Positions 880 through 37,176 of a stretch of 64,000 nt of DNA are shown here, in pieces (position 1 is the stretch's first letter; each line of letters begins with the position of its first letter). A program made the translations under genes and the position numbers. The stretch covers positions 310,001 through 374,000 of the forward strand of contig OZ287085.1 of the NCBI GenBank assembly GCA_965645245.1, read 5' to 3'. This DNA comes from Massalongia carnosa (Eukaryota). The notes beneath the pieces are model-generated. The model was not told the origin of the DNA. It was given only the letters and a program-made list of their open reading frames with translations, and made no database searches.

Positions 880-1351
880 TAGTTACTTGCACTTTATCCA
901 GCCTCGTATGGGCACCTGGGGAGGTCATTATCATGTCCATCAATACAATTCTAGATGGAGAACCAATTTTTTTTATGAGAATTTGACTGCACATTCAAAC
1001 TTCGTGCCTTACAGTACATTCGACATAGCATGGAATGGTCTCAAGTGATCCAGTCTGTTCTGGCTGCAAGCACTCGTGTTGTGGCGTTTCAACCGCGGCT
1101 ACCTCCCTCTAACACCAGGGTCGACCACATCTTCGCGGGATGTCGTTGATCAAGGAAAACACTCAAAAGAAGAACTTATACAGAAAAACACAGTTTATCC
1201 GATTGTTCTAGAATGTGATAAAATAGAGACTTCCCAGTGAGTCAAGTAGACAATTCTTGCGATCAAGCAGAAGCTAAAACTTGATTAGACCTGCGGTTGC
1301 GTTCGCCGCATATCGCTCAATCTACTAAAGATATCTCCACATTCAGCTGCT

Positions 1352-4300
1352 ATGTACCAGTCCGAACAGATATATACCCTTCAAGTCACAGCGTTATCCA
1401 GCTCTCAGAACGGAGCGAATACAGCGTGGACCACTTGCATAAGTTTGAATGATGCAGTAGTAGCGCAAGACGTTGCGCTTATCGACCCTTATAATGAATT
1501 TGAAGCAGCTGAATGTAGGTGGTATCTCGAAGACTTTGCAGCAGTCTCACCAGACCAAACTGGGCGTGAAAAGATGGCAGCGGCCGACATCGATCGGTAT
1601 GGAAGGTCATTAGAAAGACAATTGCAATTGGGGAAGCTCTTGGATGATGGGTTGAAAAAGAGGGAAGCGAGCGATGTTGTGATTGAGATCGTCGTTCAAG
1701 ACGGTGGGGACTCCTCCAATCGGTCTAACAGTTGTAGCATTCACCGTCTCTACTGGGAGTGCCTCGAAAATCCTGATTACTGGATAACATCGACTCCTAT
1801 GCGAAAGATCATCGTGCGACGTCAGATCCACCAAGCCGATCAGAATGCGGGAGATCCTGAGACCCCGAACGAAATGAAGCGCCTCGGTCATTTTCTGTTC
1901 TTCTAGTAACTGCTCGGGATTGCTCAACAACAGCAGCTAGGAAACAGGAAATTGACCCGTTTGCGATTATGTCCATTCTACTCCATGTCAGGACTTGTCT
2001 TTCGGAGTCTGGTCATCACGAAGCATTCAATGTGGAGGTCGTCCGCCCCGGAACTTTCACCGCATTTGAGAGTCACTTGCATCGCAAGTTCGACCTCGTC
2101 CATTTTGATCTCCATGGAGTAATTCGGAAACGCAAAGGCAAAGATGTGGCGTGTTTGAAGTTCGCCGCGGAAGACTCACCAGAGGATTTGATACCGGTAT
2201 CCGCGGCAAAGATTGCGACGCTGTTGCGCAAGCATCACATTTCTCTCGCTGTCTTGAACTCCTGCAAATCATCCCAAGCCGGTAGCAGTGACGATGCCAA
2301 CCTCGCAAAGGATTTTGTAAGAGCTGGCATCGCCCAGGTTCTTGCCATGTCAATGTCAGTATCTCAAACAGCTGCCTTGATATTTGTACGCACTTTCTAT
2401 GGTTCCATGGTCTTAGGTCATCGTGACTTTATCCATTCCGTGTCCAATGGCCGAAAAGCACTTCGACAACAGACCCAGCGCCCGACGAGATTTGGGTATC
2501 ATATGGAAATAAAAGACTGGATCATTCCAACTTTGTACACGTCTGAAGTGGTTTCCAAACAGGACGTTCTGGGTAATCTTCGTCCGAGTCTCTACAATTT
2601 ACACCATAGCATCTTGGGAAATTCTCAAAGCACAGGACAGGCTCATCTTAATGGTCGGCATTTTGACATTTTACGCGTGGAACGTCAGATGCTAGAACGC
2701 CAAATCATTTTCTTGACCGGGCAATCCGGTGCTGGAAAGACTGCTCTTCTACAGACAATGAAGAATCTCTGGGAGTCAACCAGTTTCGTCAATTGGGTTT
2801 CAAATATTGACTTTACAGCCAAGATATTCCCTTCTGCAGCCTCGGTTTTTACGGAAATGCTCTTACAATTGGGACTTGATGCCGACAGTGCTTCAACGTA
2901 CGAAAGTACTCCAATCCCAGAGCTCCAACATGTTTTAATTGATGCAATATTCAATTGTAACTACGCTATACTTTTTGATGGTCTTCAAATTTCCCACTCT
3001 GCCCTAGGAGAGACCTGGTTCCATCTGTGTTTTCACAAGAGGCACGGAATATGTTCAACAGCTTCGTGAACGAGTTGGCTCAAAAGAAGACACGTGACAA
3101 AAAGCGATACCCTATAATCGTTCTTGCTGGAAGAGAAGCTGATATTTAATTGTGGAAACGCCATCTGAATCCAGTGGATTGTACGGACGAGGCTCTCTAC
3201 TACCTGGACGGCCTTGACATGGCATACGCTATCCCAATGGCGCGCCAACTATCTCTGATACAAACACCAATTCAAGATGATCCGGTATTCATTAGAGACG
3301 AAACTCTTGAGTTAATGGTACGCTTGTTACAAGGGAATCCGCTCTCGCTACTCACGATCTGCCCGCTCATTAATCTGACTAAGAAGGCGACTCTGCAAGA
3401 GCTTATTTTCGAATCGGTGCCGGCCCTTATACCTGCATTCCAGGATAAAGGGAGCGTATTTATGTGTGAACTTCAGCACATCTGCAGCATGATGGACGAT
3501 GATCGTGGAGTAATTTGGAGATCCTTGACGTTTTTCTAGCACGAAGGGCCGCTGGTAAAGCCCTGGGTTGAAACTCTGGCAAAGTTATCTGGCTTCGAAC
3601 TTGACAATCCCGAAATGGCTGAAGGGGTCAGCAACGACGTTGTCCGCGCGTTTCTGGCTGCTTCTGATCGAGGATTGTTGGGGCTCGTCTCCTGGAAAGT
3701 CAAGTGGATCCACCCTCTCTTCACGATATACCTTCGACTACTATTCCTTCAAAAAAAAAACAGACAGCAGAACCCAAACCCAGAGGATTGATCGAAACGG
3801 GAGCTCAACTATATTGAACGAATACAACCGTCCACTGCATGAGGCTGCGGAGCTATGAAAACACATTCTTAACGCAATCCAGGAGCGTCTCGTAGTTGAC
3901 CTCGAAGTTAGTAGACGGACAGGCGCCCGATTCGAAGCTACATGCAACAAGCTCAAAGTAGGGGCTTTCAATTTCTTCACCTGCATTAGAGCATGCACTG
4001 AACGCTCAGACGGCCAACTGCAGCTTGATGACTGTCCTCTTGCTGGAATAAGCTTATATACACAATTCAGTCGACAAATTCTCCTGTCTTCAGAGCTATC
4101 GTACACCACCAATTTGTTCAAGTCAGTTATCAATCGACTCGTAGACGAGTTTGATAGATTAGCTATACCTCCTAAATTACAGCTACTCGCACTACAAACA
4201 CTCAATCACCTGGCCGCTGTCCATGCACATGAGATGCATAGACCGGTTGCAGAGGCTATGGTGTATCTTAACAGATCTAAGAATATTATTGAGGCTTCGG

Positions 4301-6126
4301 AGGCCGCGTTCGGACCCATGGAAGGATATCTTGTGCTCTGCCACAAATCACTTTGCTTTAAATACCGAGCATTTTTCCTCCTGCGTGAATTCAAGGAAGA
4401 GGAAGCAGAAAGCGCATGGAATGACATGTTGGAAGTTGATCGGGTTATCTACGATGAAGTCTTGTGTGAGTCTAATTCATCACAACCTCATTCTGGTGGC
4501 GTGGATGTGACCGTACATGTTTCTAACACCGATCTGAAACCGACGGGAGATGACATCAGAGCTGTTCCCGACGCATGGCGGGAACTTAAACATAAGTCAT
4601 GGAGGGATTTGAAACGAATGTTCTCGGCCGTGAATATCACAGAGTTCTCGAGTGGCCTGGGTCTCAATGATATTGCCGATTTTACAGATTCAAGTAGAGC
4701 ACTACACGGCGTCGCGGAGGCATTCAAAGAACAAGGTGTTCACGGCTTTTCAGCAGACCCAAGATGGTGGCCGTCAAGATTCGACATCAATAGGATGCTC
4801 GCACACTCCGAAGACCGTGCAAGTCGACTAAATGCTTTGCAGACCGCGCGCAGCAATGGATCGTGGTCAGAAGCTGCAAAGCATCATCTCTGGCTCGCAA
4901 ACACTGCACAAAGAGAAGCAGATGTTGATGTTGCGCTCCATCACTTGGAGGAATGTGTAAAACTACGGCAAAAGCTGAACGGTGACGACGAGGATCTTCC
5001 AGACCTTGAGAAACGAGTGGTGCTCTTAAAAAGCTTTCAGCAATGTGCAGAACTAGCGAACACGATGGATAGCCATGGCCTCGCCAAAGATTATGACAGC
5101 GCTTTAAGCCTGTATGACGAATTTGCACGTTTGATTGACTCGGTCGACTGGGGCTCGGAGACAATCAGTGCACAGTTGAAAGAGCAAGCAGAGGTGCAGA
5201 AAGATCATCATGAGTTTCTGGCAAGCACGCAGAAATGCCTTCTAGGGAACTCTAGCGACCCTTCCAGCACCGTCGATGCTGACGAAAAAGAACGTCAGCA
5301 CCGCAATTACCGCGTGATATATGCTCAAGTAGGCCGACAAATAGGCTTCGCGCCCCGCAATGCTTGCACCAGTGAGTACAACAAACGCCTCCAGCGTTTG
5401 CTCACATCTTTGCTGTCAGAAGATACCAACGAGATGCTCCAAGCGTCGGATTCTCTGCTGGAGATGAAAGAGACACCGTTGTTTTCCGCACTTCAGAAAC
5501 TACCCCATTGGTCGAAGCAGTTCAAGGCCTTAGAAGATATGCACGTTCACCTCCGGAGGGCCAATGCTGCCGCAGAAGAAAGATGGGAAGAGGCGGTAGA
5601 ACTTGCAGAAGAAGCCATTGCTGCTTTAGATGACGATGCTCCAGAGAGCGTGAGGCTCGAGTTGCCCGAAGAGTGGAAGGAACACTGCCAGAAGCGGAAA
5701 GAAAAGATTAAAGACCTTGATAGGCTTCGACTAGAAGCGAATCGCGACCAGGATTGGGCTCGGGCCATCAGTCTCACAGAAGATCTTTTGACACGAAGTG
5801 AGAGCAGGGTTGCCGACCCAGCGATGCGTATTTGGACTTTGCGAGAGATGGAAAGAACACGCATCAACATGCACCAGGCTTCCTTCAACGAAGCTCGCAA
5901 CTCCAATGATTTTGGCAGCATGCTAGAACATGCGAAGGCTCTCAAGCTTATTGCGGAGTCGCAGCGTTTGCCGGAGAACACAACACCAGACGATGAAAAG
6001 CTGGATACGGACGAGACTATCAAGGTTGAGAAATCGGTCGAGAGGGCGGTCGAGTTTCTACGAGTTGTGCAACCCGTGGGCGCAGAGGCCTCAACTTTCG
6101 CACAGGCACAGTGTAGTTTGCTCTAA
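1352..6126 (+). pseudogene. NLR-like CHAT (caspase-family) protease - STAND NTPase - TPR-like helical repeat protein, ~1590 codons when reconstructed, disrupted
   Basis: CHAT motifs FSVLLVTARD, VVRPGTF, VHFDLHG (His 2113) and AVLNSCKS (Cys 2263). Walker A GQSGAGKT (2719-2742), Walker B-like YAILFDGL, GNPL and IHPLF motifs, then a long helical C-terminus. Frameshifts at ~1865, ~3010 and ~3755; in-frame stops at 3147, 3537 and 3856. Confidence 0.85.
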
Positions 6127-6180
6127 AATTTGAATCATGATTATACGGATCATCCGGCCGAACTATCCCAAAGAAATAAA

Positions 6181-7082
6181 CTACTGCAGTTGGTAATCCG
6201 CAAGCAAACGCTTGTCCAGTCCGCTTTCTGTGAACAGTGCCTCGCTCCCTGAGCTATTATCGTTGGGATCCGAACTATCATCATCGTCGTCGTCATCGTT
6301 ATCGTCGCCAGCATACAGTTCATGTCCATCCTCGGCCCTATGGATCCTCCCATACTCGGCCTCTGGCTCTCCTCTTGACCATACCCTCACCCCTTTCAAC
6401 TTGATCACTCGATACCTCACGGCAAACACAAACTCGCCATTTGCCGCATGCCGCTTAAACCAACCTCCATCAAACGTCTTCTCACGGATCCTCCAGGGTT
6501 GAACAGTTCCGGCGCAACTACGGGTGACAGCGGTGCCGCACTAGAGCCAATAGCTGCCTCATTCGCGATCTCAGCTATCGGCAGTTCTGTATCCAACTTG
6601 ACATGTTTGAATAGTCCCTGGTTGACAGCGATCTGCGCATCCACCAGCGACTTCACGCCAACGACCATGTAGCCCTTTCTCTTCGCGTTTTTTCTGCTCA
6701 GGAGCTTCAGCACCTCATGCCGTGCCTCGCCCTTGACAACGGCATCAAACACGTCGCGCTGCTGCTCCAAGCTCCGCGTAATGACTCTCTTCCCCCTCAT
6801 CTCTCGCGTCAGGCCTTCGCCCCGCTCCCGACTCAGCCCGATTATCTTCCCCAGATGGCCTCCCACCCCGCTGCCGCTATTGGCATTCAGCGTGATCTCG
6901 ACAACTTCATCGGTGACTTCGATGAGACTGTCGTCGACGTCGACGAGCGTGGAGATTCTTGGCGCGAACTCCTCGGGCGGCCAGAGAGGGTCGGCGACGA
7001 TGCGCCCGAGGAGTTTGGACGTGTAAGAGGCCGGGAGTCGGTCGTTGAGGAGGATATACGGCGGTTTTGACTCGTCGGACAT
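6181..7082 (-). pseudogene. Fungal gasdermin-like (RCD-1/HET-Q1-type) pore-forming protein, 300 aa when one frameshift is repaired
   Basis: ATG at 7082 in caaaATG context. Motifs LLGRIVADP, YMVVGVK and, after a -1 frameshift at ~6483, GEFVFAVRYRVIK, followed by an Asp-rich linker and short tail. Size, motif order and protease neighbour fit fungal gasdermins. Confidence 0.75.
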
Positions 7083-8090
7083 TTTGTTTCCTTGGTACCT
7101 TCGAGGGACTGTTACGAGCAGGTATTTCACCTTATGAAGCTTGCCTAAAGCAAGAGCTTTTGGTGACCTTGGAAGTTGTAGATAAAGGTGAGGAAGAAAA
7201 GCTTCCAAAGCTACTCTAGAAATATTATCTATGAAGGTGTTCAGCCCTATAAGATTAACGTTTCTCCGATAGGGCTGCTTGATGATCGTCGAAGTCCCTG
7301 CCGACATATCCACTCCCTTCGACTACCTGACGAACAGCGACAGAGTGCCTGGTTCTCAAGTCCGACTTCTGGCTGCATCTGTACGAGACGGCTGTGTTGT
7401 CAGATGGTAAGGACTACCATCATGGGCATTCATCTAGTGCTTATCTTCGGCGACTCTACCACGGGGACCGAGGTGACTTCCGGGGACCGAGATTCAGTGG
7501 ACCGGCTGACTCCTTATGAAAAGGGTCGCCGAAAGGTCTCTAATGTGACTGCTATATAATGAAGTAGATAGCTCACATATAACCCATACCTTTAATGACA
7601 ATCATGCTATTATACCTACACGTGAATTTTACTATTCATCATGTGTACCCCGCGAATGTACGGACACACACACACGGGTGGGATGTCGCGAGCTGGCGAG
7701 GGAGTGGAGAGTCGAGACGGATTGGGAGATGAAAGAACCGAAGGAGCCCAAGCCTGCTCCAGGACAGAATGGTATTACGTCGAGCAACGAGTAGGCGACG
7801 GGGGTATAGAGTTTTCAGACGAAGTCGTTACGTTTGGTGACAGCGAAAACAACACGTAGCAAGTAGGGCCAGGTCATAGAACTACTAGATATTCACGATG
7901 TTTTCACTTGGTCCGTGCGACTCTAGAAGACAAATCAAGAAATTTGTCACTCTTCATGCCTCGCAACTACAGATTGTTAGTTGCCACCTTCAAATGCAAC
8001 ACAACAACATCAGATTTTCCAAGACGACTGCCGCCTTAACCATCAGCCACTGCAACAACTACCCAACCACGAAACTCAAGTCCTACGGCC

Positions 8091-8699
8091 CTACTTTCCT
8101 TGCTCCTGTTCGATATCTGCCTCGGCTTTCCGATAGACTTCCATGGTCGCAATAGCATCTTCTACGCTCGACACCCGACCCTGCTTAATCGGACGACCCA
8201 GCACCTCCAGCGCCAGATTCTTGAGACTTGGGCCCTGGTGGGAGCTGCGATTGGCGTATTGGCGATACCTACTGTACTTTTGAGTGTCGCGGACTGTTAT
8301 GTCGAAAGTGACCGGAGTGAGCCGCAGAGCAAAACCTTGAAGCCGTAGGATGTGGGAAGGCAAATCCATTGAGATGACTTTTAGATCTTTTTGAATATCG
8401 TGGCCGATCACAATGCGATCGCGGAGAAGCTCGACCAGATGGGCCTGAACTTCAGAAAAAGGTTGAGCGCCGTTCTGCGGATCGATGTCGTTCAAGTCAA
8501 TTCCGGAAAACTGTTCGTTGGTGTTTGTAATAGTGATGGGCTCGGGGTAGCATACAAAAGTGTCGAAGATGGTTGCACCTTCGTAATTGACAACAGAGAC
8601 GCGGCCGAGGACCTGACCGATGTTGGACTGCATCATTTCGCAGTCAATGGCGATTTTTCTCGGTGAGGATGTCATAACCTGGGCCTCCTGGCTTATCAT
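8091..8699 (-). CDS. REX4/ISG20-like DEDD 3'-5' exonuclease domain protein (202 aa)
   Basis: ExoI IAIDCEM followed by GRVSVVN, ExoII IGHDIQKDL, RDTQ, PSLKNLA..VLG, and ExoIII SSVEDA. The ORF is uninterrupted. Confidence 0.85.
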   Translation of the reverse strand: MISQEAQVMTSSPRKIAIDCEMMQSNIGQVLGRVSVVNYEGATIFDTFVCYPEPITITNTNEQFSGIDLNDIDPQNGAQPFSEVQAHLVELLRDRIVIGHDIQKDLKVISMDLPSHILRLQGFALRLTPVTFDITVRDTQKYSRYRQYANRSSHQGPSLKNLALEVLGRPIKQGRVSSVEDAIATMEVYRKAEADIEQEQGK

Positions 8700-10820
8700 T
8701 TGATCTCGTGCCCTTTCGTTAATCTTTATATTCAGAATCTCATCGATATTCCGAAATTTGGAAAAGGCTCAATCGGAAGCGGTGAGTCGACAATTCATCG
8801 TCCTACTATGTCGTATAATTGTAATACCACATTGTACACTAAGCAAATGACACAAAGCCACCAGTGATACTTGACCGGAGCACGTGATTTGAAGTGTGAA
8901 ATGGATCTGGCGAAGCGCTTTGGCAAACTGTGGCTGGGAAATCAAACGTCGCTTGTAGTGCGCCACAGTCTTCTAAGATAGGTATGAATTCGAAATATAA
9001 TACACGCTTAGTACGAAATAATGTAATCTCGCTAATGCACGCTAATTTACGCTAAATTATCACATCACTGTCGCCGGGCGAAACTCCCAGGACGTATGTT
9101 TCCGAAATCAGAATATCTTTAAATTTTAGGGCAATAATTATTCTTTTCTAGTGACACTTTCGTGTGATGGCTCTGTAATTTAAAAAGTTATAGATGGTCG
9201 TGATTAAGCAGGGGGGAACCGCTGAAGTAGTTCTTAACGCCAGCAACGGAATGATCGACCGCAAGATAAAAACCCCGGTATTATTTTATTGCACATTGGT
9301 ATCGGGTGTAGAAATAGCTGTAGAACAGAACATATTAAATGAAATTTTATAGACTTGCATGTTAAAGACTTGAGATACCTAAAATATGAATTTGTTTCTT
9401 GACAGGGCGCGTTTCTCGATGCAGGGACGCACGTTACCTCAGGACAACCAATAAGATGTGAACTGATTCCATTGCTCTAAACATATAGACAAGAATGATC
9501 TATAACCATAAAACACCATCCGTCAGCGGAACTCAACCCGAATCTCCATGCTTATATTGTGACGATCAAATGACCAATCAAAGCTAGTCCAATCGAATGC
9601 TAATCTGACTTATAGAAGGATATCTCTGAAGTGTATAGAGGAGCGCTTCCGTCTGCTTAGGGAGCCATAGTGAAATTTGCTTTCCCACTTCCCCGAGTAG
9701 GCACATTCGTAGGAGCGACATCGAGTGGCGATGTTCGAGACGGCATATCAGAAAGCATGTCGTACTCGTCAAAGAGGTGTGGGAACTTGCGGCGCAGTCA
9801 CCTGCTCAATGGACTTCTGACAGGTTTGGGGGGACGTCCGTTGGATAGTCTTCGTTGAAAATTGATAATAAGGCAAATGATTCTTAGGCCTGCTTTGCTG
9901 TTATCTTGAATTGATAGTTCTAGCGCTATTGCTATAATGAGTGGGACTTGCCAAAACATATATGGAAGCTTCCGGTCCTCATATACTAATCATGGGTGCC
10001 GCCATTTCTGGATACCACCAGCTGTGGATGCCTCCATTTCTGGATACATACAGGATGTTGCCAATTGTGGATGCCACCAGTTGTGGATGCCGCCATCTGG
10101 TTCGCCTTCTAATAATGCAGCCAATTCCGAAGTGCCTAACAATAGTCCCTGATTATCTTATATCGAACGATCCTAGAGACATTACACGAGGTTATCAACT
10201 TTCTCACAGACAGCGCAAAAGTATAGGCAGCATGGCGATAGTGAAAAGCGAACGGCTCCTTTGAGAAAAGCTTCGCAAGCGGACAACAAACATACAAATC
10301 AACGGAAGAATCGAACTGGCCTCCTCCCGAAAGAGAATTGTGAGTACGCCTGGTCTGCGGTCAGACCAGTACTGGAGATAACAGGGGATGCACGGCCACC
10401 AGTGACACGGATGTCCTGCAGATTTTCACGGTCACAAACCTCGGGAAACTTAGAGGATGCAAAAAGCCAATCAACCTGATAAAAGCCAAGTCGGCTTCAG
10501 ATTTCTCGATAAGGTGGAACACAATAGTGATCGCGCCCTTGCTAACAGACGTACCTTGACTGCAGCCCAGAACAAGTCATTACTGCGAGGAGGGTTGGAA
10601 GGCATGAAATTTATAATGATAATGTGGCTGGGCTATTTGATAGGCTCGCAACGGGGAGATTGAAAGAAGTCTGGGCATGGATATCTAGGAGTTGTGCTAT
10701 AATTGCCTTGATAACGTCAATTGTAAAACACTCAGTCTCTCTAACTTTTGGGTCATAATCGCCTCAAGAGCAAGATTGAAGAATTGTGAAGACATACTCC
10801 CTCATTTTCCTAATATGCAA

Positions 10821-12566
10821 TCACTTCTTGCCTTCCCCCTTTGGTTTCTTGAACACAGGTTCGGAGGTCTGAGATGACGGAAGTTCCGGTTCTGTCTGTT
10901 GTGAGTACGAGGTGGTCAGTTGGCTGTTGTTCTGTTCGGAGGACTCAATATTTGATTGCTGCGAGAGGGGCTGCACAACAAAGACTTCCGGGTCGGGTAG
11001 CTGATCAGCTGCGGAAGTGATCCTTTCGTGGTGGATTCGACGAAAGTCGTGATAAACGCTCAGTGTGAACTTGTAGGCCGTCCATCTTTCCTCTCCGTCT
11101 CGGCTAATAAGACTGAAATGATGAATCAGATGGCGGTAGAAGGTGGTCTCCTTTCCTTTAATCAGGGCATAATGGCCATAAATCTTCACAGCCTGATGAT
11201 CGTGCGAGACTGAGAAGGTAAGGATCTTTTGATGAAGCTCATCTTGACGCGACACCAATCTATATAGCTCGACGACGGCGTTTGCGGCAACGGCGGCGCT
11301 ATGAGCGTTCTGTCGATCTGCGACGTTGAGAGCTTCGTTACCGCATTTCACCTCCGCTGTGAGGAATGGGAAATACATCTCATCTGTAGCCACCAGACGA
11401 GATGTAGTCTGCCAATCACCAATAGAGGGTTGCAACTTCTTGAGTTGGTCAGAGGTGAATGCCGACGATTTAAGTCCTACAGCAAAGTCGGGCTGCGGCC
11501 GAGGACCCTTAATAAGAGGGATGGATTTGATCCAGCTTTCATCGACGGTTTCGATCAAATGCTTAAGATGTGTTGCCCCACGACGAGCCAGTTCTTCTGG
11601 AGCAGGAACGATCAACCGACCAATATCCTGAATAACTCTTGCCTCGTTTCGGTTTGATATATCTTCCAAAGTCCATTCAAATAGATTATCGTTAAACAGA
11701 GAGTCTTTGGGTACTGGCTGTTCTTTGTTGAGTAATTCTCGGCAAAGAGCTTTGTCAACTTTGGTCGCTCGCAAGTGCGGTTCAGGCTGGCCCATGTAGA
11801 TGCCGACGGATTTAAGTATCTGCTCATAGCGCCGACTCTTGACGAGAGGATTTTTTCCTTCTCTTAAAGACACGCCGCTAATATCTGATTCATGTTTGCT
11901 GAGAGACGGAGTCGACCTCTTCCGGGTAAGTGAATGGGTCATGCTGCTGTCTTGCTTGAAATTTGCTCCAGACCAGCTTCCTTCTTCGATCCAACGACGG
12001 ATGGCGTTGGCGTCGTTATTCTTGGTGTTGCTACGAAGATCTGTAAGTGTTGCGCCTTCAACAGCACGGTTTGCAGGTGAGGTTCGTTGACGTTTTCGGG
12101 TAGGCCTTTCCTGGGCTTGCAAAGGTGTACGGGCAGCTCTTTTGGCCTCAGGTTTGTGATTCTGCCCAAGCTCTTCACTCCGCTTCCGCTTTCGACCTAG
12201 ATTGGAAAGGTTGACTGATTCCTGTGGGCGCTTTGGCCTGAGTCAGTGGTCGCAGTTGTACAACAAGGGATTGTAGAATGTACCTCTTTGTCAGGCGTGA
12301 TACTGGTTGGAGAAGGAAGTTGAAATAGTTGCTCTTGAATCTCCGGTTGCTGATGGAGACGTATACTCTTTTCTAGACGTGCACTCCTACGAACAGATGT
12401 AAGAGGCTCTTTTTTCCCAATACCGCGTGGGTGTGCCGCTACGGGCTGTCAGCTGAAGAAACAATTATGCATGTGTGGTAGCAGTTTTACCTTGGTTTTT
12501 CAATGGGTCCAGCAAAAGTTGCCGCCCATATCTCTTGACATCTGACTTTGCTCGTGGTGGGGACAT
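10821..12566 (-). CDS. Fungal PD-(D/E)xK restriction-endonuclease-like protein (DUF7924-like), predicted 3 exons, ~546 aa
   Basis: Exons 12566-12491, 12438-12284 and 12230-10821. The 52- and 53-nt GT-AG introns have CTGAC branch sites and keep frame. Motifs PQPDFAVG, FPFLTAEVK and ADRQNAHS, with a basic RRSARL/KRKR-rich N-terminus. Confidence 0.7.
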
Positions 12567-12829: not shown

Positions 12830-14204
12830 CGGAGGATGACACGAAAAGTCCTTGGATGCGCTATGACACTAAGAATTTAGCGTAACGCCACCACACCACC
12901 CGTTTTGACCCCATCATCAACCTCATTTTCAAAGAAAGACCTCATCAACCTACATCACTGTGATCAATGATGTCTTTACGATAGCGACTGCGACGATCTT
13001 CGGAATTATATGGCCTAATCACACCGTTGTCTCGACCCTCTCTATACTCGTTTCCTCCGTCCAAAGCAATGATCTCCTGTATATGTCTTGGAATTCTTTC
13101 CATCCAATGCTGAATTTGTTCCTGTTTCAGACTTTTTGTCCAGCACTGTGTCCATGCTTTGATGGCCGTAATGCGATTTCGAGGTGCTCCTTTAAGTGTG
13201 GTTTCTTTTTTCATTCAGTACCAACATTGCTCGATCATGTTCAAATCGGGAGAATTACCCGGCCACAACAAACGCAGGACTCCTGCATTCATAAAGACGA
13301 TGTTCTGATGTTTAGAAGCATGACAGGGAGCCTTGTCCTCCTGAACAATAGTACCGGGACGATCTTTCATACATTCTTTGGCAAAGGGTAGAAGTTTGGG
13401 TAAAAGAATGACCTTCTGATAACAGTACCAGTCGATGCCCCCTTTGCCTTTTCGGACCACTTTTCCATGCGTTTCATTCCACCTCCAGGCTGGTTTTCGA
13501 CCTCCTTTCGTACGCAGTCCCATTCGTTGCATGCCCGTTTCCAACTCCCAATTCTCTTTCGCTACGGGCTCCAATATCTCATTGATTTTGTCAATATCTC
13601 TCTGAGCGGCGTGTTTTTCTGCTGCTGTCTCCGGCTTCCATATATGAAAAGGTCCTTTCTTTTCATACGAAAAACAACCCCGAAACATGAACTCGGAACA
13701 TCCTTTCCATCTACGTCGGACGCACGATTGAGCATATTTTTCGTTTGGAGTTCGCCATTGAAGTCTTCGTCCACGTCGAGAGTTCAACACGACACTGGTT
13801 TCATCGCTCCATATAACATTCTTCCAATCATCGAGAGTCCAGTGTTGATGACGCAAACAAAATTGCAATCGAGCATCTTTCATCGCTGAATCAAGACCTG
13901 GCTTCATGATAGATTTGCAGGGACGAAAGTTATTGCGTCGAAGAAAATTGAGAATGGTTGTAGATGAAACTCCGTGCTCATATCCCAAAACGGCTGAGGA
14001 TTTTTCTCTCCTATTTCGATCATGACGAACATTGTTTAAAATGGCCTGTTCTACCTCAGGCGTCACTTTGGTAGGACGTCCTGAACGAGGTGCATCTTGC
14101 ACGTATTCTACCTTCAATATTCGTGAAATAGTGGGATCATATTCTCGATCTCGTGCCTTACGTTTGAGATAGCTGATAGATTGGGTGGAAACTCCGGTGA
14201 CTGC
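12830..14204 (-). mobile_element. Tc1/mariner transposon, defective, 5' end lost at the hAT junction
   Basis: APRSGRP, IWSDETS, QEDKAPCH and SPDLNMIE motifs, with a premature stop at 13215. The left boundary is inferred from the TA at 12828-29. Confidence 0.8.
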
Positions 14205-14792
14205 TACGCCGCGGAATGGGTTGGGTTGGGTTCGGGTTGGGTTATTGTTGGGTTGGGTTGGGTTCGGGTTGGGTTTTCATTGGGTTACCCAAATCACATG
14301 CTTAGTAATAGTAATCAATAACCTTGACTTATCAACGTGGCGATCGGCGTTAGTATCTTATGTATTCTCAACTATACCATCTACTTACCACCAGGCATAC
14401 TCTTCCTGGTGGTTGGTTTTCTTATCGCACCAGTTCTGGCACCTGGTCCGGGTATTCTATCGAGTGTTCGGTTTGGAATTCGCGCGGGTTTGCGCGTACG
14501 CTTGCGCGGAGTCTTCGGTGCCATATCTAAAAGCAAACAGGCAAGCAGACAGGTTATCAGTGGTCGCGCGTGGCAACTAGGTTAGGTTCAGTATGACTAG
14601 GTTGGGTTGGCTAGTTTAGGTGGAATATTTATGCATGCGTTGAATTTGACTGAGTGTTTAGAACGTAAACGTAGTTATTAATGCTTTATCGCAGCATAAT
14701 CTAGTCAATGAAGTTACATTCCTACAGCTACATTCCTACTGCTACATCCTATATATACATTCCTATATATACAATCCTCGTCATTCGCAACA

Positions 14793-17725
14793 ATGAGCAG
14801 CTCGCAGATGATAGATTCAGAGATATACGATCTTCAAGTTGTGGACACACCCACCAGATGCTACGCATATGTGGCCGAGAAAAGCGAGGAGTTTATGGAA
14901 TGGTGGCGAAGTACGAGATGGCATTTTGCTAATGAAGAGAAGAGTAGAAAGGCGATGAAGAAGATCGATTGGGGATCGACCAAAAGAAAGGCGGCGGAAT
15001 GGAAAGAGTTTCAGGAAGGCGCCACTGTGGGCGATGGTAATCCCAAAATAATCTGCTCGCGATGCTCCCTGGTCTTGACTCATCCCTCACTGGGCTCCGG
15101 AAATAACTGCATGACTAATCACATAAATTCCGAGTCCTGTAAAAAGACGTCGACATTGAAAGGAATGAAGCAACTTTCCTTAAAGGTTGGATATCGTGCC
15201 GAAGTATGACTACCACAATGACTACCACATTACGTGCTTTGCTAATCAATATTAGATTGAAGCAAAAAGACAAGAGGCCTTAACTCTCAACGGGCGTAGA
15301 CTAAAAAAGGATGATTTCACGCCTCAATTGCTTCGTATGATTGTTGCTCTTGGGCTACCGTTACGAAGTGTCGCCAATGTCGAATTGCAAAGAGCGTTCA
15401 ACTGTCTGCTCGATAATGTACAGTTTCCTTCACCATCGACAATCAAGAATCGCTTGATGACCCGAAGTCAAGAGATTATTCCGCTTTTGCTCGAGAGGCT
15501 ACCTAGGGGTAGTTCAAAGGTCTCTCTGGCTTTGGATTGTTGGTCGTCATTTAATCGTCAAGGTTATCTGGCCATCAATGCTTACTTCATTGACGATAAA
15601 TGGAATTATCACGAAGTGCTTCTTGCCTTCGAACACGTTGAAGGCTCACACACGGGAATAAAACTTGCTGAAGTATTGAACAGCGTTTTAATCAGACATT
15701 CTATTGAAGATCGTGTTTTGGCATTAACCACGGACAGTGCATTTAATAACACAACGATGGTAGATGAGTTGCGACGAATGATACGAAGCAATCGAGCCTT
15801 GGCACTTCTACACACTGATGCTAATGAGATACAGCGAGTGCCTTGTTTATCGCATGTAATTCAACTTGCTGTGAAACAGCTACTTGGGTGTATTCACATT
15901 AATCCCAAAAATGCCGATTTCAAAACCAGCTGGGATGATAAGCAAGATAGACGGGATTTCGAAAACCCGACACCTGGAGTTCCCCTTACGCTAGCTAAGG
16001 CAAGATTTATTTTGTGGTAGTCGTTGTGGTAGTCGTTCTAAATTTCGATTAGGTTCGAGCATTAGCTGTTTACATTAACAGTAGCAATTTACGTAAGGAG
16101 AACTTCTACGCTGTTCAACGAGCATTAAATGACGAAGAGAGACGCACTGGAAACTCGGTCAGCGGTACAGTACTTAAGCTTTTTCAAGATGTAAATACTC
16201 GATGGGACTCCACATGTCACATGTTAATTCGAGCGCTCAAGTTGCGACAAGCGCTGAATAGATATCATGATAAACATGAAGCCGAGTATTTGAGATTGCT
16301 CGACGTGGAATGGTCACAGATAGAATATCTTATCGATTTAACGAAGCTACTCTGCGTCTTCACAAAGATGATTGGTCAATCAAAGCAACCGACCATTCAT
16401 CAGGTGTTCGAGATCTACAATAAGCTGTTCGATCATCTGGACAAGCTCGCGCAAGATTATCTCGTAAGCGAGTATCGTGGAAACGGGCGCTATTGAATGG
16501 CATCGAGGCGGCTGCAACGAAATTACGTCAATACTATTCTAAAACTCAGGGGTCATTAGGTTATCTATATGGAAAGGCGGCATTGCTATCTCCCAATAAG
16601 AAGGACCTAATTTTCAAGGGTCTCAATTGGGATGCGCCCTATGGGGAAAGTCGATGGGAAGATCAATATTGGCAATCTCTGGAAGCGGAATTCGATATCT
16701 ACGAGAATTCTCAAACCTCACAAGTACGCGGGCGTAATGTCGCGGTCATTCGAGACTTGAATAATCTGGAGCTTCTTCTGAGTACGAATAATGCTACTCC
16801 GCTCGCTCTAGATGACGAGTTCAACTGCTATCGTCAGCGAGGTAGGTTAACTGATACAATAAATCAGGTCTTTTCTCATTGTGTTCAACTTATTTAAAAT
16901 ACACAGCGATGCATGATCGTTCGGGTCCTATTCTACAACAGTGGAAAGATCTCGAGCCGGAATTTCCACAAATGAGTATGGTTGCCAGGGACATCCTTGC
17001 TGTACCAGCCGCTGGCGTTGGATGTGAGCGCGTTTTTAGCGTTGCGGGAGCCCTTTACGATCATCGCAAGAATTTTCATCCGGATACATTCTCCGCGATG
17101 ATGATGGTTCGTTTCTACGATCAGAAGGAGAATGCAGATGCAAGTTTACACGTAGATTTGGAAGAAGAAGAAAGCATGAGTCTTGAGGATTTGACTAATG
17201 AGATGCAAAGGCGACATGAAGACCTAACACAGGTTTTTCAGAAGGTCTACATTAGTGATGAAGAAGACGATAACAATGACGAGGACCAGTTAACGCAGAT
17301 CGGGTCATCGCAGGTTGAGCAGGTCTCAGCGCGAGATGTAAGCATCGAGTCACTTACTTCCGTGTCTTCTTGAGCTAATTATTCTACAGAAAAGTAAGAA
17401 ACGAACTTACAATAACAGAAACTCCATTTCCGAGCAACGCGATAGGAATAAGAGGATTGCAACGCGCACAAGAAGGGGTAGGCTTCCATCAAGCGAGGAG
17501 GTGAAGGAGGGTATGATAGAGGAGGGTGTGGTGGATGAGGTGGAGGAGGAGGAGGAGGAAGAGGGTGTAGTGGATGAGGTGGAGGAGGAGGAGGAGGAGG
17601 AGGAGGGTGTGGTGGAGGATGAGGTAGAGGAGGGGGGTGGAGAGGGTGGGGGTGACAAGAAGGTGGAGAGTAAAGGAAGAGATGGCGAGAGACTTTCTTT
17701 ACGAGTTTTGAATAGGAAGCGATGA
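14793..17725 (+). pseudogene. hAT-1 transposase, multi-exon, disrupted
   Basis: BED-like C-x2-C..H..C finger, LALDCWS, TTDSAFN, CLSHVIQL, QDVNTRWDST (joined through intron 16000-16052) and dimerisation motif ARDILAVPAAGVGCERVFS. Frameshift near 16440 and a Glu-rich tail. The end is approximate. Confidence 0.85.
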
Positions 17726-22084: not shown

Positions 22085-25000
22085 GTGATATTCTTCTGGC
22101 GTAAATATAAATTCATCATAGAGCTCATTGTTATCATACACTCAGCTCAACAGAACACCACTCCCATACTTCAAGTGGTCCTTCGTCCGCAAGTCCTTCT
22201 CCCGAAAAGGATAACCTCCAGCTCCTCCGCCGTGGCATCCTCCCCTCTCTCCGAAGGCCAGACCTTCGATCCTCCGCCTCCGGACTTCAAAAACGAAGCC
22301 TCTCTTGTGCCTCACGTCATCACGCCTGATGCCTGGAGCCACTCGATCCAGAAATTTCCCCACGAGTGGTACAATTTTCTATTCAAAGCTGCCAATCAGA
22401 TCACGTCGCTCTTGAGCTCCCTGGACATAAGATCGAGTCAGTGCGAGTCTTTAGAATCGGAGCGTGATCAAATCCGCCGTCAGCTGCGTGACTCCAATGA
22501 CGAGCTGATCGCGGCTCGAGCCTTGATCATCACCCTTCGGGGACACCCATCCCCCATCGGCCACGCAGACTCCCGATTGGAGAGACTCCCGGACATTCCC
22601 AAGTTCTCGGGAAAGAAGGAGGATTTACGTTCCTGGACAACCCGACTGCACTTGAAACTTTTCGTCAATAAAGACCGCTTCACCGGAGAAAATCATGACT
22701 CATCTATGCTATCAGCCGATTGGAGGGGCGTGCGCTCTCCCAGGTACAACCCTATGTCAAGTCACAGCACGAGATCTCTCTGCCGGATGTACCGTCCCTC
22801 CTGGTGCTGTTGGAACGTGCGTTCGGGGACCCTGACCGAAAGGCCACCGCGCAGCGTGAGCTGCGTGCCCTTCGTCAGGCAAATCGAGAGTTCCATGTGT
22901 ACTTAGCAGATTTCCAACGCATCGCCCCGGACACCAATTCTGAGGAAGCTCAACGCGCTGCCCTGCAACAAGGTATCAGCGAAGAACTTCAACAGCTAAT
23001 GGTAACGCAGCAGGTCCCGGAGGACCTCAACGAGCTGATCTCGTTACTGCAACGGCTAGATACTCGCTAGCACAATGTTAATGCCCTGCTCCGGAAGCCC
23101 TACTCGCCCCGGTCCGCCCCATCTTCTTCTGATGCGGGGACCACACTTAATAATCCTCCGTCTGGGGGGGTTGCCCTATCCCGAACCGTCTCCCCCACCG
23201 CCGTCGCTCCCGCCTCGCCTCCAGACGCCATGGACCTCTCCGCCTTCTCTCGAGGCAAGTTGCCCTCGGCGGAAGTAGCTCATTTTATGAACGAGGGGCT
23301 GTGCTGTTACTGCGGGGAGTCCGGGCACTTTGCGGCCAACTGTCCCAAACTGGCACGAGGGGGGAAACCCAAGCCGTCACGACTCAACGAGTCTACCCTT
23401 GCGGAGTCGAAGGAAAACGCAGTGTCTTCGAGCTAAGTCGCTCTCGAAGACCGACGGAAGGATTTCCTATGTCAATTTCGGCTTTTTCCATATCAGAAGA
23501 CTCGTTAGATGGTAGACATTTCGTCGTATCCATAGAACTCTCCGTAGAAAATCGCGTTTTGCACACACATGCTTTAATAGATTGCGGTGCTTCTGGCTAT
23601 GCAATCATTGATTCGTCCTTCGCGCAAAGAAATTCCCTGCCTCTCACCCCCCTTGTCCGCCCTCGCGTTCTCGAAGTTGTGGACGGCCGACCAGCCGCGG
23701 CTGGTATGCTCACACACCTGGCCAAGTTGAAGATGAACGTCAACGGGCATCACGAGCACGGCTCATTCCTTGTGACCCAGTTGGGTCACTATCCCGTAGT
23801 CCTGGGAGTCAAATGGCTCCAAATTCACGAGCCTTTCGTCAGCTGGTCTCGAAATACTCCGACCTTCTCGTCCTCGTATTTTCGTCTGGGGTGTTTGGAG
23901 AATAAACACGTCCCTCTTGTTATTCCTGGCCTTTCTGATCTTTCGGAAGAGTCTCCTCCCCCGGAGTCTGCTTCCTCAGTGCGTCTTGACCCTCCTGAAA
24001 TCCGTGAGAACAAGTTCTCTCACGCGAATCTTGAATTCTTGAAACCCACCGAGTTTATTGAACATCCCGAGCCCATGATCCGAGTCCCGAGTTCACGTCT
24101 TGAACCCTCGAAAATCACCAAGTTCATTGAACACTCTCAGCCTCCGAGTCTCGTCCTAAAACTCAAGAAGTCCAGCGCCTTTCCCATAAAAATCTGTATG
24201 ATAGGAGCCGCGCCATTTTCCACCCTGATGAAGGATCGAAAGAACGAAATCTTCACTGCGTCCTTGTACGAGATCGAGAAAGCCATACAAGCCTTGAAAA
24301 ATCCGAGCAACCTCAGCCTTGCAGCCGCATCTCTGGATGATGTGGCCAAATCCTTGAAACTTAAGAGATTCATCGATCCTGCTACCGTAGTACCCGAGGA
24401 ATTTCATGATCTCCTGGACGTGTTCCCCAAACAAGAGGCCGATAAACTGCCTCCGCATCTTTCATACGATCACAAGATCGTGTTGATGGAGGGCGCAGTT
24501 CCTTCTTCGGGTCCTCTATACAAGATGTCAGCCCCCGAGCTTTTAGTTTTGCAGAAATCTCTCAAGGAAAACTTAGCCAAGGGATTCATTCGAGCCAGTT
24601 CCTCTCCTTGTTCCTCGCCGGTATTGTTCGCACGGAAGCCTTCAGGCGGACTGCGATTCTGTGTCGATTACAGAGCCTTGAACGATATCACCGTAAAGAA
24701 TCGCTACCCAATACCCCTGATTCAGGAGACTCTCGATAGGCTCCCAAAAGCCGTTATATTCTCGAAATTTGATATTTTAGCGGCTTTCAATAAGCTGCGC
24801 ATGCAGAAGGGACAGGAATGGATGACGGCCTTCAAAACATGATATGGGCTTTTCGAGTATGATGTTCTTCCTTTCGGATTGTCTGGAGGTCCTGGATCCT
24901 TTCAGCATTACATTAACGATGTACTCCGCGAATATCTAGACGCCTTTTGCACCGCGTACATCGATGACATCTTGATTTACAGTAAATCGAGAAAAGAACA

Positions 25001-27419
25001 CAGGATCCACGTAAGAAAAGTTTTAACAGCTCTACGAGATGCGGGGTTGCAACTAGACATTGAGAAATGCGAGTTCTTCGTCACCGAAACAACATATTTG
25101 GGATTGATTATCTCCAATAAAGGAATAAGAATGGATCCTCGCAAAGTTCAAACCATCAAGGACTTAATCACGCCCAAGAATGTTAAAGATATTCAAGCCT
25201 TTGTAGGATTCGCGAACTTCTATCGCCGTTTCGTCAAAAACTTCTTCGCCATGGCCGCACCCCTGATAAAGCTGATAAAGCTGACTCGAAAGAGTGTGAT
25301 CTTTTCTTGGAATCAGGAATGCGAGACCGCATTTCAAAGATTAAAGGACGCGTTCATGAGCGACCTTGTTCTGATGAATTTTAATCCAGAGAAAAAGATC
25401 GTTGTAGAAGTTGACGCCTCGGATTGGGTAGTGGGGGTAGTACTCTCGCAACATGACGACGAAGGAATTCTAATACCTGTGGCATTCTTCTCAAAGAAAC
25501 ACTCACCAGCGGAAGTAAATCATGGGATTTATGATAAAGAGCTTATGGCTATGGTTCGTGCCTTTGAGGAATGTAGAGCTGAACTCGAAGGAGTCGCATT
25601 TCCAATACAAGTAATTTCCGATCATAAGAATCTGGAATATTTCATGACAACGAAGCAATTGAGTAGAAGGCAAGCACGCTGGTCCGAATATCTTTCTCGG
25701 TTTGATTTTCAGATTGCGTACCGCCCAGGGAAGAGTGGCGGAAAGCCCGATGCCCTTACCAGAAGGTCTTAAGACCTACCTGAGGGGGGGGATGATCCAC
25801 GAGTGAAGATCCAACATCAAACGGTCTTGAAACCTCGAAATCTTGAACTTCTAGCGAACGGATTAGCAAAGAAATTTTCAGAAGAGAACGATATTGAATC
25901 AGGTTCAGATCAAGAGGAAGTCAAGACGCTGGAAGAACTATGGCAAAAGGCTCTGAAAAATGATCATTACCCTGTCAAGATACTGAACCTGTTACGGTCA
26001 GGAGCAAGGCACTCCAAGGATATCTCGTTAGCGGAATGCACGGAAATCGACGGTCGATTACACTATCGAGAGAAAATGTTCGTTCCCGACTCTCATGCTT
26101 TGAAAATGAGGCTCTGCGAGTCTGTTCATGATAGTCCAGTGGCAGGTCACCCCGGCCGAGCCAAGACCTTTGATCATTTACAGCGCCACTATTACTGCCT
26201 CGATTTTATCAGTTCGTAGCGAAGTATGTACAGCACTGTCAAGTATGCGCACGAAGCAAATCATCTCGTCAAGGGAAAAGGGGAGTTCTCAGACCACTGC
26301 CCATTCCCGAGTGTCGCTGGTATCTCAATGGAATTTGTCACTGGACTGCCGGAAAGCAATGGATTCGACGCCATAATGGTCGTGATAGATCGTCTGTCGA
26401 AAAGACGTCACTTCTCTCCATGTCTCACCACAATCAATGCTCAAGAATTGGCTGAGCTCTTTCTTCGGGATATCTGGAAACTCCATGGACTACCAAGCAC
26501 CATTATATCAGATCGAGGAGTGCTTTTCGTGGTGGAGTTTTGGAAAAAGCTGTGTCAAGGGTTGGGAATCAAGAGTCTTCTATCGACAGCCTTCCATCCA
26601 GAAACAGATGGGCAGACGGAGCGAGTAAATGCCTCCATGGAACAATACCTTCACAGTTACAGGGATTATCTTCAGGATGACTGGGCAAATTGGTTGCCCA
26701 TGGCGGAATTTATAGGAAATAATGTCGTGTCCGAAACGACTGGGTGCAGCCCTTTTCTTGCGGAGATGGGATACCACCCGCGTTTGGGCTTTGAATTAAT
26801 GGAACCCTCAAGGTCCCCGGCCAGTTTGAACGCAGGGGAATTCGCCAAGAAAATGCAAGATATCACGATCGTGCTGCAAGAGGAAATGAGTTTCGCGCAA
26901 GCACGATACGAAGCAGGGGCCAATGAACATCGCGTGCCAGCACCGGTTTATCAAATAGGAGACGCAGTATGGCTAAGCACAAAAAACATACGTAAACAAG
27001 GAGACGCAGTATGGCTAAGCACAAAAAACATGCGTAAACAACGACCCGCTCGAAAGCTGGATTGGAAGAATCTAGGCCCATTCAAGATATCTAAGGTGGT
27101 AAGCAAGTATGCATATCGACTCGATCTCCCCATCGGCATGAAGATTCATCCCGTGTTTCATGTATCTCTTCTCTCGCCCGTGCCTCAAGATTCTCACCCT
27201 GATCACGTTCCACCTCCTCCTCCACCAGTCGAAGTTGACGGCGAAGAGGAGTATGAAGTGGAGGATATCCTCGATTCAAAGAAGTTCCGGAATCGCTTGA
27301 AGTATCTGGTGTAGTGGATCGGTTGGAACGACCCCACCTGGGAGTACACAGAGTACGTCATCAATGCCAACGAAAGAGTAGCAGTCTTTCACCGACGATG
27401 TCCAGAAAAGCCCCGATAA
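22085..27419 (+). pseudogene. Gypsy gag-pol (zinc knuckle, protease, RT, RNase H, integrase, chromodomain), disrupted
   Basis: [60 protein letters not shown], and EYEVEDILD chromodomain. Several stops and frameshifts. Confidence 0.93.
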
Positions 27420-34800: not shown

Positions 34801-35164
34801 AGGAAGCGGAAGAGGGGTTATACATATCATGGACGTGAATTGTTTCCATAACGCCTTCGGTGTAGGTCTTTATTTTCAAAGTGCACATGTCGGCCGAGGT
34901 GAATTCCACCTCCCAGCTGTCAGTGTCTATTAGGTCGTTGACATAAAAGCACACTCTGGTGTCACCTCCTGGGCGGTATAGGAGGTGAAAGCCGCTTTGA
35001 TGAGAACTAAACGATGTGGGGGCGGATGGATTGCGCCACGGTTCCTGTATTGCAATAATATTATAGTCCTGGGTGTTTGTGTCTGCTAATAGGGGTATCA
35101 TAGTACTCACTCTGTTATTTCTGACATTATACTGCAATATAGAGAGGGATTTTGTGTCCCTCAT
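31850..35164 (-). pseudogene. LINE ORF2 (AP endonuclease, RT, C-terminal CCHC)
   Basis: IAIQEPW, LGDFNLHH, SDHVPI, KAPGPDG, GIPQGSPLS and FVDD motifs. Same-frame stops at 32459 and ~32357, and a 39-bp in-frame deletion near 33470 relative to the copy at 49150. Confidence 0.92.
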
Positions 35165-36648: not shown

Positions 36649-37176
36649 TTTCGCGACAAGTTTATGATAGTAATTGAAATGATAAGACTAAGTCTTTCCT
36701 CTATAAGCCCAGCACCATATATGATGTGCAGTTGATATCTCGGGGTTGGAGGATAATTTAACAAGATAAATTATTTATGTGAAGTAGTTATCTCTGTTTG
36801 TGTGGCGCAACGGGTTTTAGAGCACCCAATATCTCTTCAAGGGTCAAATATTCGACCACGACTGATTGCATGGACAGAGGCGAAGGGGTTATGTAAAGAA
36901 CCACACGAGACGTTGATAGTTTGATAAATAAAGAGTCGCAGTTCTTTTTGTGTTTTTTTTTTTTTGAGATCATTGAAAATCCACTACAATATAATAAAAA
37001 TCGTTTTTATATCGAAAAGAACGATATTTTCATTTATTTTAAATAATACTGCAGTTGTTCCAATATTTTCTTTTTCAAGTGATTAAAGACATAAGCGAGC
37101 TTGCTTTGCTCGGTAAAATATTAATTTTTATTAATTTTAATTTAATTCGAAGTTGTGTTATTAATTTTTTAAATTC

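Follow-up and report, generated by a model that had tools for sequence, protein, structure and literature searches.

The window analysed here is a 64,000-nucleotide stretch of the Massalongia carnosa genome (assembly GCA_965645245.1, contig OZ287085.1, positions 310,001 to 374,000 of the forward strand). Near its start two genes face each other: a plus-strand gene related to CHAT proteases (1352..6126), whose open stretches run from an ATG at 1352 to a TAA at 6124-6126, and a minus-strand gene for a small gasdermin-type protein (7082-6181), which runs from an ATG at 7082 to a TAG at 6183-6181. The genes are convergent and their stop codons lie 54 bp apart, as had been noted in an initial annotation made from the DNA letters and their open reading frames (ORFs). 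That annotation described an intact NLR-like CHAT protease beside a gasdermin gene hidden by a broken frame, and proposed that the two form a working system for cell death. Both family assignments stand, whereas the working system does not: each gene carries disabling lesions, and these are kept in other sequencing runs. We consider it highly probable that a two-gene pyroptosis module of the CHAT type, similar to HET-Q1/HET-Q2, has decayed at this locus and left both genes as pseudogenes, in a fungus that is probably a lichen-forming ascomycete. This reading draws on what could be demonstrated directly: the fold and family of the proteins, their domains, the lesions and their recurrence in other samples, and the linked occurrence of the two genes elsewhere.

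The domain content of the larger gene is still legible. On the ORF at 1969-3069, Pfam recognises a CHAT domain well above threshold (E = 1.4e-14, 54.7 bits against a cutoff of 24). The intact His/Cys dyad described earlier is confirmed, with the His of HFDLHG at 2113-2115 and the Cys of LNSCKS at 2263-2265; across 35 aligned CHAT segments H84 and C134 are each 97% conserved and G85 is 100% conserved. We take this His and Cys to be the catalytic pair of a clan CD protease. The closest relative among 34 matches, P0004 (MMC11_007601 of Xylographa trunciseda, 1579 residues), is 55% identical over the query (E = 1e-104).

The earlier description of a P-loop STAND domain fused to helical repeats held in part: a Walker A motif is present and the model of the C-terminal region is all-helical, but the P-loop Pfam matches in the window all fall below their cutoffs (AAA_22, 24.4 bits against 27; NACHT, 19.2 against 26.7) and matches to TPR repeats are weak. 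The orthologue P0004 narrowly exceeds its cutoffs (AAA_22, 31.5 against 27; NB-ARC, 24.0 against 23.5). An AlphaFold2 model of the C-terminal 755 codons consists of about 30 helices with no sheet (predicted local distance difference test, pLDDT, 72.7; predicted template modelling score, pTM, 0.41). Its best Foldseek matches are TPR solenoids (TTC7B, Ctr9, P58IPK, LGN) at weak scores (E 6e-4 to 1e-2, TM 0.1-0.3), and only two matches reach E ≤ 1e-3. Pfam TPR matches in the window are sub-threshold (E 0.05-0.23), with no above-threshold repeat in the window or in P0004. What lies beside the gasdermin gene is a CHAT protease that also has a P-loop and a helical domain.

The coding sequence of the minus-strand gene is divided between two frames. 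A word-based search with its N part, among 680 candidates, returned three related proteins: P0001 (221 residues, 99% identical), P0002 (300 residues, 56% identical, intact) and P0003 (331 residues, 48% identical; hypothetical protein MMC11_007600 of X. trunciseda). These homologues set the start at the ATG at 7082 and not at that of the GVG-start ORF from 7313. Read through, the gene amounts to 198 + 1 + 101 = 300 codons, the length previously given, and all of the motifs previously listed are present: LGRIVADP (7010-6987) and YMVVGVK (6671-6651) in the N part, and the core strand FAVRYRVIK (6426-6400) and an acidic, poly-Asp tract (6306-6268) in the C part, which ends in KRLLADYQLQ (6213-6184). 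The break itself, formerly placed near 6483 and mended by one added base, lies at 6488-6487, outside any homopolymer. P0002 and P0003 align across it gap-free, which leaves no space there for an intron. The break is a true frameshift in the DNA, neither an assembly slip nor a gene-caller artefact, because contigs of other runs hold it unchanged and P0001, the product of a gene caller elsewhere, is truncated identically, out-of-frame tail included. The frameshift precedes the GE-x-[IV]-F-A-x-x-Y-R strand and the last core strands, and with it the window contains no intact reading frame for a pore-competent gasdermin.

The family of the small protein was traced through progressively larger alignments. 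A four-row profile searched against 1.84 billion representative sequences gave 362 relatives at E ≤ 1e-3 (114 at ≤ 1e-10 and 11 at ≤ 1e-30), nearly all 280-320 residues long; searched against the Protein Data Bank (PDB), the same profile found no gasdermin, only chance matches (RelA/SpoT, E 0.44). From the 150 relatives listed, 99 near-full-length sequences of about 250-330 residues were aligned, fragments and longer forms being excluded. The 99-sequence profile matched RCD-1-1 (8jyz_A, E 2e-6), the HET-Q1 pore (9uv9_A, E 1.3e-4) and RCD-1-2 (E 0.0046), and the best five of the 12 PDB chains listed are all fungal gasdermins. In the ESM Atlas the only named lead was a Bact_GSDM-containing cluster at 0.94, with the family annotated on 13% of its members; the recognition score of 1845 is under the 2300 level, which makes it a lead only.

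Structure prediction for the orthologue P0002, based on the 99-row alignment, gave an AlphaFold2 model (pLDDT 81.2, pTM 0.71) with four very long strands that resemble the hairpins of the pore state, and a tail that is disordered from residue 258 (pLDDT < 50). All ten Foldseek matches to the PDB at E ≤ 1e-3 are gasdermin oligomer or pore assemblies, led by the RCD-1 pore (8jyz_A, E 6.4e-10, TMt 0.60) and followed by gasdermins from Trichoplax and bacteria and by GSDME, GSDMD, GSDMA3 and GSDMB. With VIA-align, the top 13 rows are gasdermins throughout (best 8jyz_B, Z 12.8, root-mean-square deviation (rmsd) 4.9, 195 aligned). The profile and the orthologue's predicted fold thus give good support to the view, first put forward from motifs, that the 300 codons specify a fungal gasdermin of the HET-Q1/RCD-1 type.

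The alignment also points to how such a protein might be activated. The column of P0002 F255 holds F, Y, M or L in 96 of the 99 family rows, and the adjacent column G, S or A in 92. The tail after this junction has a median length of 51 residues and carries at least five net negative charges in 96 of 99 rows. In the window the junction reads ...GHELY/AG..., with Tyr/Ala at 6315-6310 (the slash marks the junction), and is followed by a 43-residue tail ending in KRLLADYQLQ. By analogy with published cleavage this Tyr/Ala junction is a candidate protease cut site. HET-Q1 is reported to be cleaved after F238 (VLF/AG, F238/A239) with the removal of about 40 residues, and HET-Q1(1-238) to be toxic (PMC8851545, PMC13475620); the 40-residue inhibitory peptide described for it (PMC13475620) is comparable in length to the 43-residue tail in the window.

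The protease gene had been taken to be intact. Aligned by tblastn, P0004 covers 1352-6054 colinearly at 42-56% identity, in four pieces that occupy three frames and are separated by no alignment gaps of intron size. The alignment exposes three frameshifts and three in-frame stop codons (Table 1), six lesions that the initial annotation had not noticed, and the gene has no intact frame. Frameshift 3 is the only lesion in a homopolymer context. Introns as the source of the frame changes were considered and rejected, since homologues align gap-free through every break. Because the protease has three frameshifts and three nonsense codons and the gasdermin is frameshifted before its last core strands, the module in the window is non-functional.

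The lesions recur in other sequencing data. We compared contigs of four sequencing runs (X1, X3, X4 and X5) over 1300-7400. X1 is identical over the whole interval and may be the source of the window, and X3, another sample from the same study, tiles all of it without a single difference or gap. X4, a lichen metagenome from another study, differs at 14 bases, leaves the stop at 3147-3149 unchanged and has no small indel, so that the gasdermin frameshift and protease frameshifts 1 and 2 are kept. X5, from a third study and with a depth of 2-7, is identical over 3496-3731 and 3707-4144, a range that takes in frameshift 3 and the stops at 3537-3539 and 3856-3858. Together, X3, X4 and X5 show no indel at any lesion that they cover and no base change at the covered stops. 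The X4 allele lacks a further 1205 bp (Table 1); because this stretch aligns to the orthologue, the difference arose by loss in X4 rather than by insertion in the window. The decayed haplotypes thus number at least two, one carrying the 1205-bp deletion and one lacking it. At the poly-Asp tract (6268-6306, rich in GAT and GAC), extra high-depth X3 and X5 contigs were drawn in, with A>G at 6295; they are probably unrelated acidic-repeat sequences and not alleles.

The two genes have accumulated lesions at similar densities: 6 in 4,775 bp in the protease (1.26 per kb) and 1 in 902 bp in the gasdermin (1.11 per kb). This near-equality fits joint neutral decay after a common release from selection, in which case the two would have begun to decay together. 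Repeat-induced point mutation (RIP) was rejected as the cause of the decay, the dinucleotide ratios at the locus being the same as elsewhere in the window: over 1-8 kb there is no RIP signature (TpA/ApT 0.54-0.79, (CpA+TpG)/(ApC+GpT) 1.03-1.44).

The initial annotation predicted that linked orthologue pairs should occur in other genomes, and they do. In X. trunciseda, P0003 and P0004 are adjacent: they share a contig of 35,780 bp, their locus tags and accessions follow directly on each other, and they form an intact linked pair. A scan of metagenome contigs with a 10-row alignment of closer relatives gave 23 loci. By tblastn with the 34 CHAT proteins, six of these (L002, L003, L004, L005, L007 and L008) have a CHAT gene immediately upstream on the opposite strand, a divergent arrangement. 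Of the eight closest loci, only L001 and L006 are not among them, and those two contigs are 1.1-1.6 kb long. From 13 further loci, which hold 71 open frames of at least 180 codons, 30 frames from 10 loci were run against Pfam; this set took in no frame that overlaps the gasdermin match, no shorter antisense frame and nothing from L015, L016 or L017. (The coordinates of L015 and L017 suggest that both are copies of L012.) L018 has CHAT plus AAA plus TPR, and Peptidase_C14 occurs in L011, L018, L019 and L021. A caspase-fold protease neighbour, CHAT or Peptidase_C14, is thus found in 10 of the 23 loci, and five of the 13 loci without one are contigs under 2.3 kb. The pairing of gasdermin with CHAT protease recurs in other genomes.

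Some of the more distant loci look different. In L012, L015 and L017 the gasdermin-like matches cover query residues 75-174 only and lie near HET-domain, APH kinase-like and SET-domain ORFs (the HET-domain ORF at L012:12546-13793, E 8.5e-23), with no protease among the frames scanned. On the plus strand of another metagenome contig, L010:7052-10705 includes a stop-free frame of 999 codons in which ankyrin repeats (Ank_2, E 4e-38) and an acidic/poly-Gln linker precede a gasdermin-like domain (match at 10001-10678), and an NPHP3_N P-loop ORF lies just upstream (7052-7657). This may be a NACHT-ANK-gasdermin fusion, or a gasdermin with an internal Met start. A search with P0002 among 4,961 candidates gave no longer or fused gasdermin forms at E ≤ 1e-3, which is weak evidence.

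Several points weigh against the reading of the locus as a decayed module. (i) Frameshift 3, beside ten A, could be a sequencing artefact shared between runs, an explanation that does not extend to the remaining five protease lesions. (ii) The runs were compared as contigs, which hide minority alleles and variants. (iii) Past the break, the 101 codons of the gasdermin C part are still uninterrupted, the protease keeps an open stretch of 755 codons, and there may be residual use of gene fragments; the persistence of such long open stretches indicates that the decay is recent. (iv) The window pair is convergent, whereas the CHAT gene is divergent in all six CHAT-neighboured metagenome loci. (v) The fold evidence comes from P0002, the 56%-identical orthologue, since the window's own product, with its frame broken, is not foldable as one chain. 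(vi) Pfam gasdermin models match neither the pieces in the window, nor P0002 and P0003, nor the 99 family members, and PADLOC models give no match; this silence reflects how the models cover the clade and is outweighed by the profile and fold results. That the small protein is instead another β pore-former, related to MACPF proteins or cholesterol-dependent cytolysins (CDCs), is extremely improbable. Such pores do appear lower in the structural lists (Foldseek E 1e-3 to 5e-2, Z 5-7.5), but they rank under all of the gasdermins with rmsd values up to 16 Å and TM 0.1-0.2, and the sequence profile matches gasdermins only.

It is very improbable that the module is alive and that its breaks are assembly or sequencing errors or unrecognised introns. 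Although one of the seven lesions lies beside the ten-A run, long open stretches persist, and neither the catalytic dyad nor the Walker A motif is damaged, three lesions are stops created by substitution where the orthologue has Thr, Trp and Gln, the frame changes leave no gap for an intron, and three other runs, from the same and two further studies, show identical bases at the lesions covered, one of them adding the 1205-bp deletion. We also regard as quite improbable a use for the truncated gasdermin (198 gasdermin residues plus 23 out of frame), made as a decoy or dominant-negative, or a bypass of the break by ribosomal frameshifting. The truncation takes the near-invariant GE-x-[IV]-F-A-x-x-Y-R strand, which forms part of the second hairpin in the model, and everything downstream; no slippery heptamer was observed in the sequence there, ...ggaggatccgtgag..., and the cognate protease is dead. 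These observations outweigh the retained start codon and 58% identity to P0002 of the N part and the 101 codons still open in the C part. A different kind of alternative is that the window holds a null allele of a polymorphic locus, as at het loci, while intact alleles or a paralogue persist in the species; a surviving paralogue would itself count against the decay of the system. Fungal gasdermin and het loci are described as often polymorphic (PMC8851545), two distinct decayed alleles exist here, 9 of the 21 X3 contig pieces are only 90-95% alike and may reflect related copies, and our comparison was confined to the window and the run contigs at the locus. We nevertheless judge this alternative unlikely, given that the lesions are shared by all four runs compared and that the word-based search returned three gasdermin relatives and no intact near-identical form.

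Taking the locus as a pseudogenised module, its intact form is exemplified by the X. trunciseda pair MMC11_007600/007601, for which a mechanism can be proposed by analogy with published systems, from which both the order of activation and the cut site are borrowed. The large NLR-like protein would be the sensor, its C-terminal helical solenoid detecting a cue. The P-loop nucleotide-binding oligomerisation domain (NOD) would then bring about oligomerisation, which would activate the CHAT domain, a caspase-like protease situated towards the N-terminus of that chain. Its cut in the partner gasdermin would fall behind a conserved aromatic residue (G-x-G-V-[FY]/[GA]) and release an acidic C-terminal inhibitory peptide of about 45 residues. 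The freed N-domain would oligomerise, its two long β-hairpins would enter the membrane, and the cell would die.

Clusters of this type are already known and tested, and the window pair is a pseudogenised member of them. In the census of Clavé et al. 2022 (PMC8851545), 353 of the 1,884 fungal gasdermins (19%) have a CHAT-type gene no more than 10 kb away, and NLRs are found among the het-Q2-like proteins; the experiments reported there show that the CHAT domain of Podospora Q2L-6 processes the gasdermin Q1-6, with barrage and cell death as the result. The suggestion in the initial annotation that the CHAT-activated type is the less characterised one does not survive these data. Its comparison with an inflammasome, a sensor-protease joined to a pore-former, fits the family, domains and linkage that we find, but the module is not functional here and the idea is in print: the relevant part of a 2023 review speaks of dozens of CHAT-bearing NLR-like proteins in such clusters and of "contracted pyroptotic pathways" with the caspase within the receptor (PMC10197012).

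Among known systems, the Podospora anserina pair Q1-6/Q2L-6 also combines a short-tailed gasdermin of the HET-Q1 family with a CHAT protein that has helical repeats. Q2L-6 has N-terminal TPRs and a C-terminal CHAT domain, with no NOD mentioned where the paper describes it (PMC8851545), whereas in the window the CHAT domain is N-terminal and is followed by the P-loop NOD and the helical domain; the window genes, moreover, are convergent and both broken. HET-Q1/HET-Q2 of P. anserina shares the gasdermin family, and both gasdermins have a tail of roughly 40 residues after an aromatic and a small residue (F238/A239 in HET-Q1, Y/A with 43 residues in the window), but HET-Q2 is a serine protease, an S8 subtilisin without a NOD or sensor domain, and the window protease is a cysteine protease of the CHAT type. 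Neurospora crassa RCD-1-1/RCD-1-2 provide the best structural and profile matches of the family. In the account of PMC13475620, however, RCD-1 pores form by heterodimerisation of two allelic gasdermins with no proteolysis and no inhibitory tail, in contrast to the conserved acidic tail and protease neighbour of the window family. The same source describes a bacterial system (e.g., Runella; Johnson et al.) with the logic seen in the window, a short-tailed gasdermin whose neighbour joins a CHAT-type protease, an NTPase and repeats in one protein (PMC13475620). Bacterial gasdermin structures match the P0002 model at Z 10.7-10.8; the window module differs in being eukaryotic, in having no PADLOC match, and in a sequence relation that is detectable to fungal members only. 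Mammalian NLRC4/caspase-1/GSDMD follows the same order, from sensor through NOD oligomerisation and a caspase-fold protease to gasdermin cleavage and the pore. The fungal type, however, has sensor, NOD and protease on one polypeptide, and its gasdermin is repressed by a short peptide instead of a large C-domain.

The remainder of the window (10824-63563) is dominated by transposon remains according to Pfam, which include copia-like pieces in addition to the elements in Table 1. Strong AT skew marks 32-36 kb and 40-50 kb, in coincidence with transposable elements. The sole ordinary-looking host gene near the module is an ORF of 202-225 codons on the minus strand (8094-8768), with sub-threshold matches to DNA_pol_A_exo1 (E 3e-4) and RNase_T (E 2e-3), both 3'-5' exonuclease families.

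Table 1 Coordinates of the module, its lesions and other elements of the window (RT, reverse transcriptase; LINE, long interspersed nuclear element; HTH, helix-turn-helix).
Feature	Position	Strand	Remarks
het-Q2-like pseudogene: N-terminal region, CHAT, P-loop NOD, all-helical C-terminal domain	1352..6126	+	~1590 codons read through
CHAT domain core	2029..2475	+	Pfam PF12770, residues 21-169 of ORF 1969-3069
P-loop NTPase core	2719..2985	+	Walker A GQSGAGKT 2719-2742; Walker-B-like AILFDGL 2965-2985
All-helical (TPR-like solenoid) C-terminal domain, presumed sensor	3859..6123	+	longest piece still open, 755 codons
Frameshift 1, frame 2 to frame 1	1864..1867	+	pieces end at 1867 and start at 1864; X1, X3, X4 unchanged, 0 gaps
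Frameshift 2, frame 1 to frame 3	3012..3015	+	pieces end at 3012 (query 556) and start at 3015 (query 558); X1, X3, X4 unchanged
In-frame stop TAA	3147..3149	+	Thr in orthologue; X4 without difference
In-frame stop TAG	3537..3539	+	Trp in orthologue; X5 record 12 covers 3496-3731 with 0 other letters, 0 gaps
Frameshift 3, frame 3 to frame 1	3746..3748	+	beside ten-A run 3751-3760; X3 and X5 contigs identical
In-frame stop TGA	3856..3858	+	Gln in orthologue; X5 record 13 covers 3707-4144 with 0 other letters
Stretch absent from X4 allele	3362..4566	+	length 1205 bp, not divisible by 3; 3361 abuts 4567 in one X4 contig, 4-base microhomology
Spacer between convergent stops	6127..6180		54 bp
HET-Q1-type gasdermin pseudogene	6181..7082	-	300 codons if read through
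Gasdermin N part, frame A	6489..7082	-	198 codons; 58% identity to P0002
Gasdermin break, 2-base remnant codon	6487..6488	-	homologues hold one residue there (NPG-x-x-x-x-[KR]TF)
Gasdermin C part, frame B	6184..6486	-	101 codons; 51% identity to P0002
DUF7924	10824-12242		window remainder
Tc1-type DDE_3 (two)	13218-14276 and 28124-28654
hAT dimerisation domain	16855-17370
gypsy-type RT-RNaseH-integrase	23154-27311
pogo-type DDE_1 (four)	30115-31230, 55774-57240, 62754-63563		plus HTH pieces
LINE endonuclease-RT	32462-35242		accompanying zinc-knuckle ORF 35164-36687
Further RT pieces	48355-49985

Relatives of the gasdermin occur in X. trunciseda, in Puttea exsequens and in lichen metagenome runs. 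The table of the 2022 census has two rows for Lecanoromycetes, both Lasallia, with zero gasdermins (PMC8851545). A literature search for gasdermin with Lecanoromycetes found nothing, with lichen-forming it found the term in a reference title only, and with lichen it gave, among the matches listed, lichen planus and other unrelated work. We tentatively offer a joint proposal, possible but on balance doubtful as a whole: that gasdermin/CHAT-NLR modules exist in lichen-forming Lecanoromycetes (X. trunciseda, Puttea exsequens and this organism) and were lost here across all sampled individuals by parallel decay of both partners, and that a cut site of an aromatic plus a small residue before an acidic tail is common to a family served by S8 and CHAT proteases, so that two unrelated protease classes may converge on one release site.

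As a cluster type catalogued in fungi, with one pair validated by experiment, the module adds little new biology in itself. For M. carnosa, a pseudogene pair that is fixed or common means that a repaired copy would not reveal a working system of the organism. For the family, the search brings out a gasdermin clade of 362 representative sequences that is invisible to Pfam models, and the locus provides an example in which an executioner and its activator have decayed together at equal lesion density. P0003 and P0004 are intact material from a lichen-forming fungus with which the architecture of an N-terminal CHAT domain followed by a NOD could be tested.

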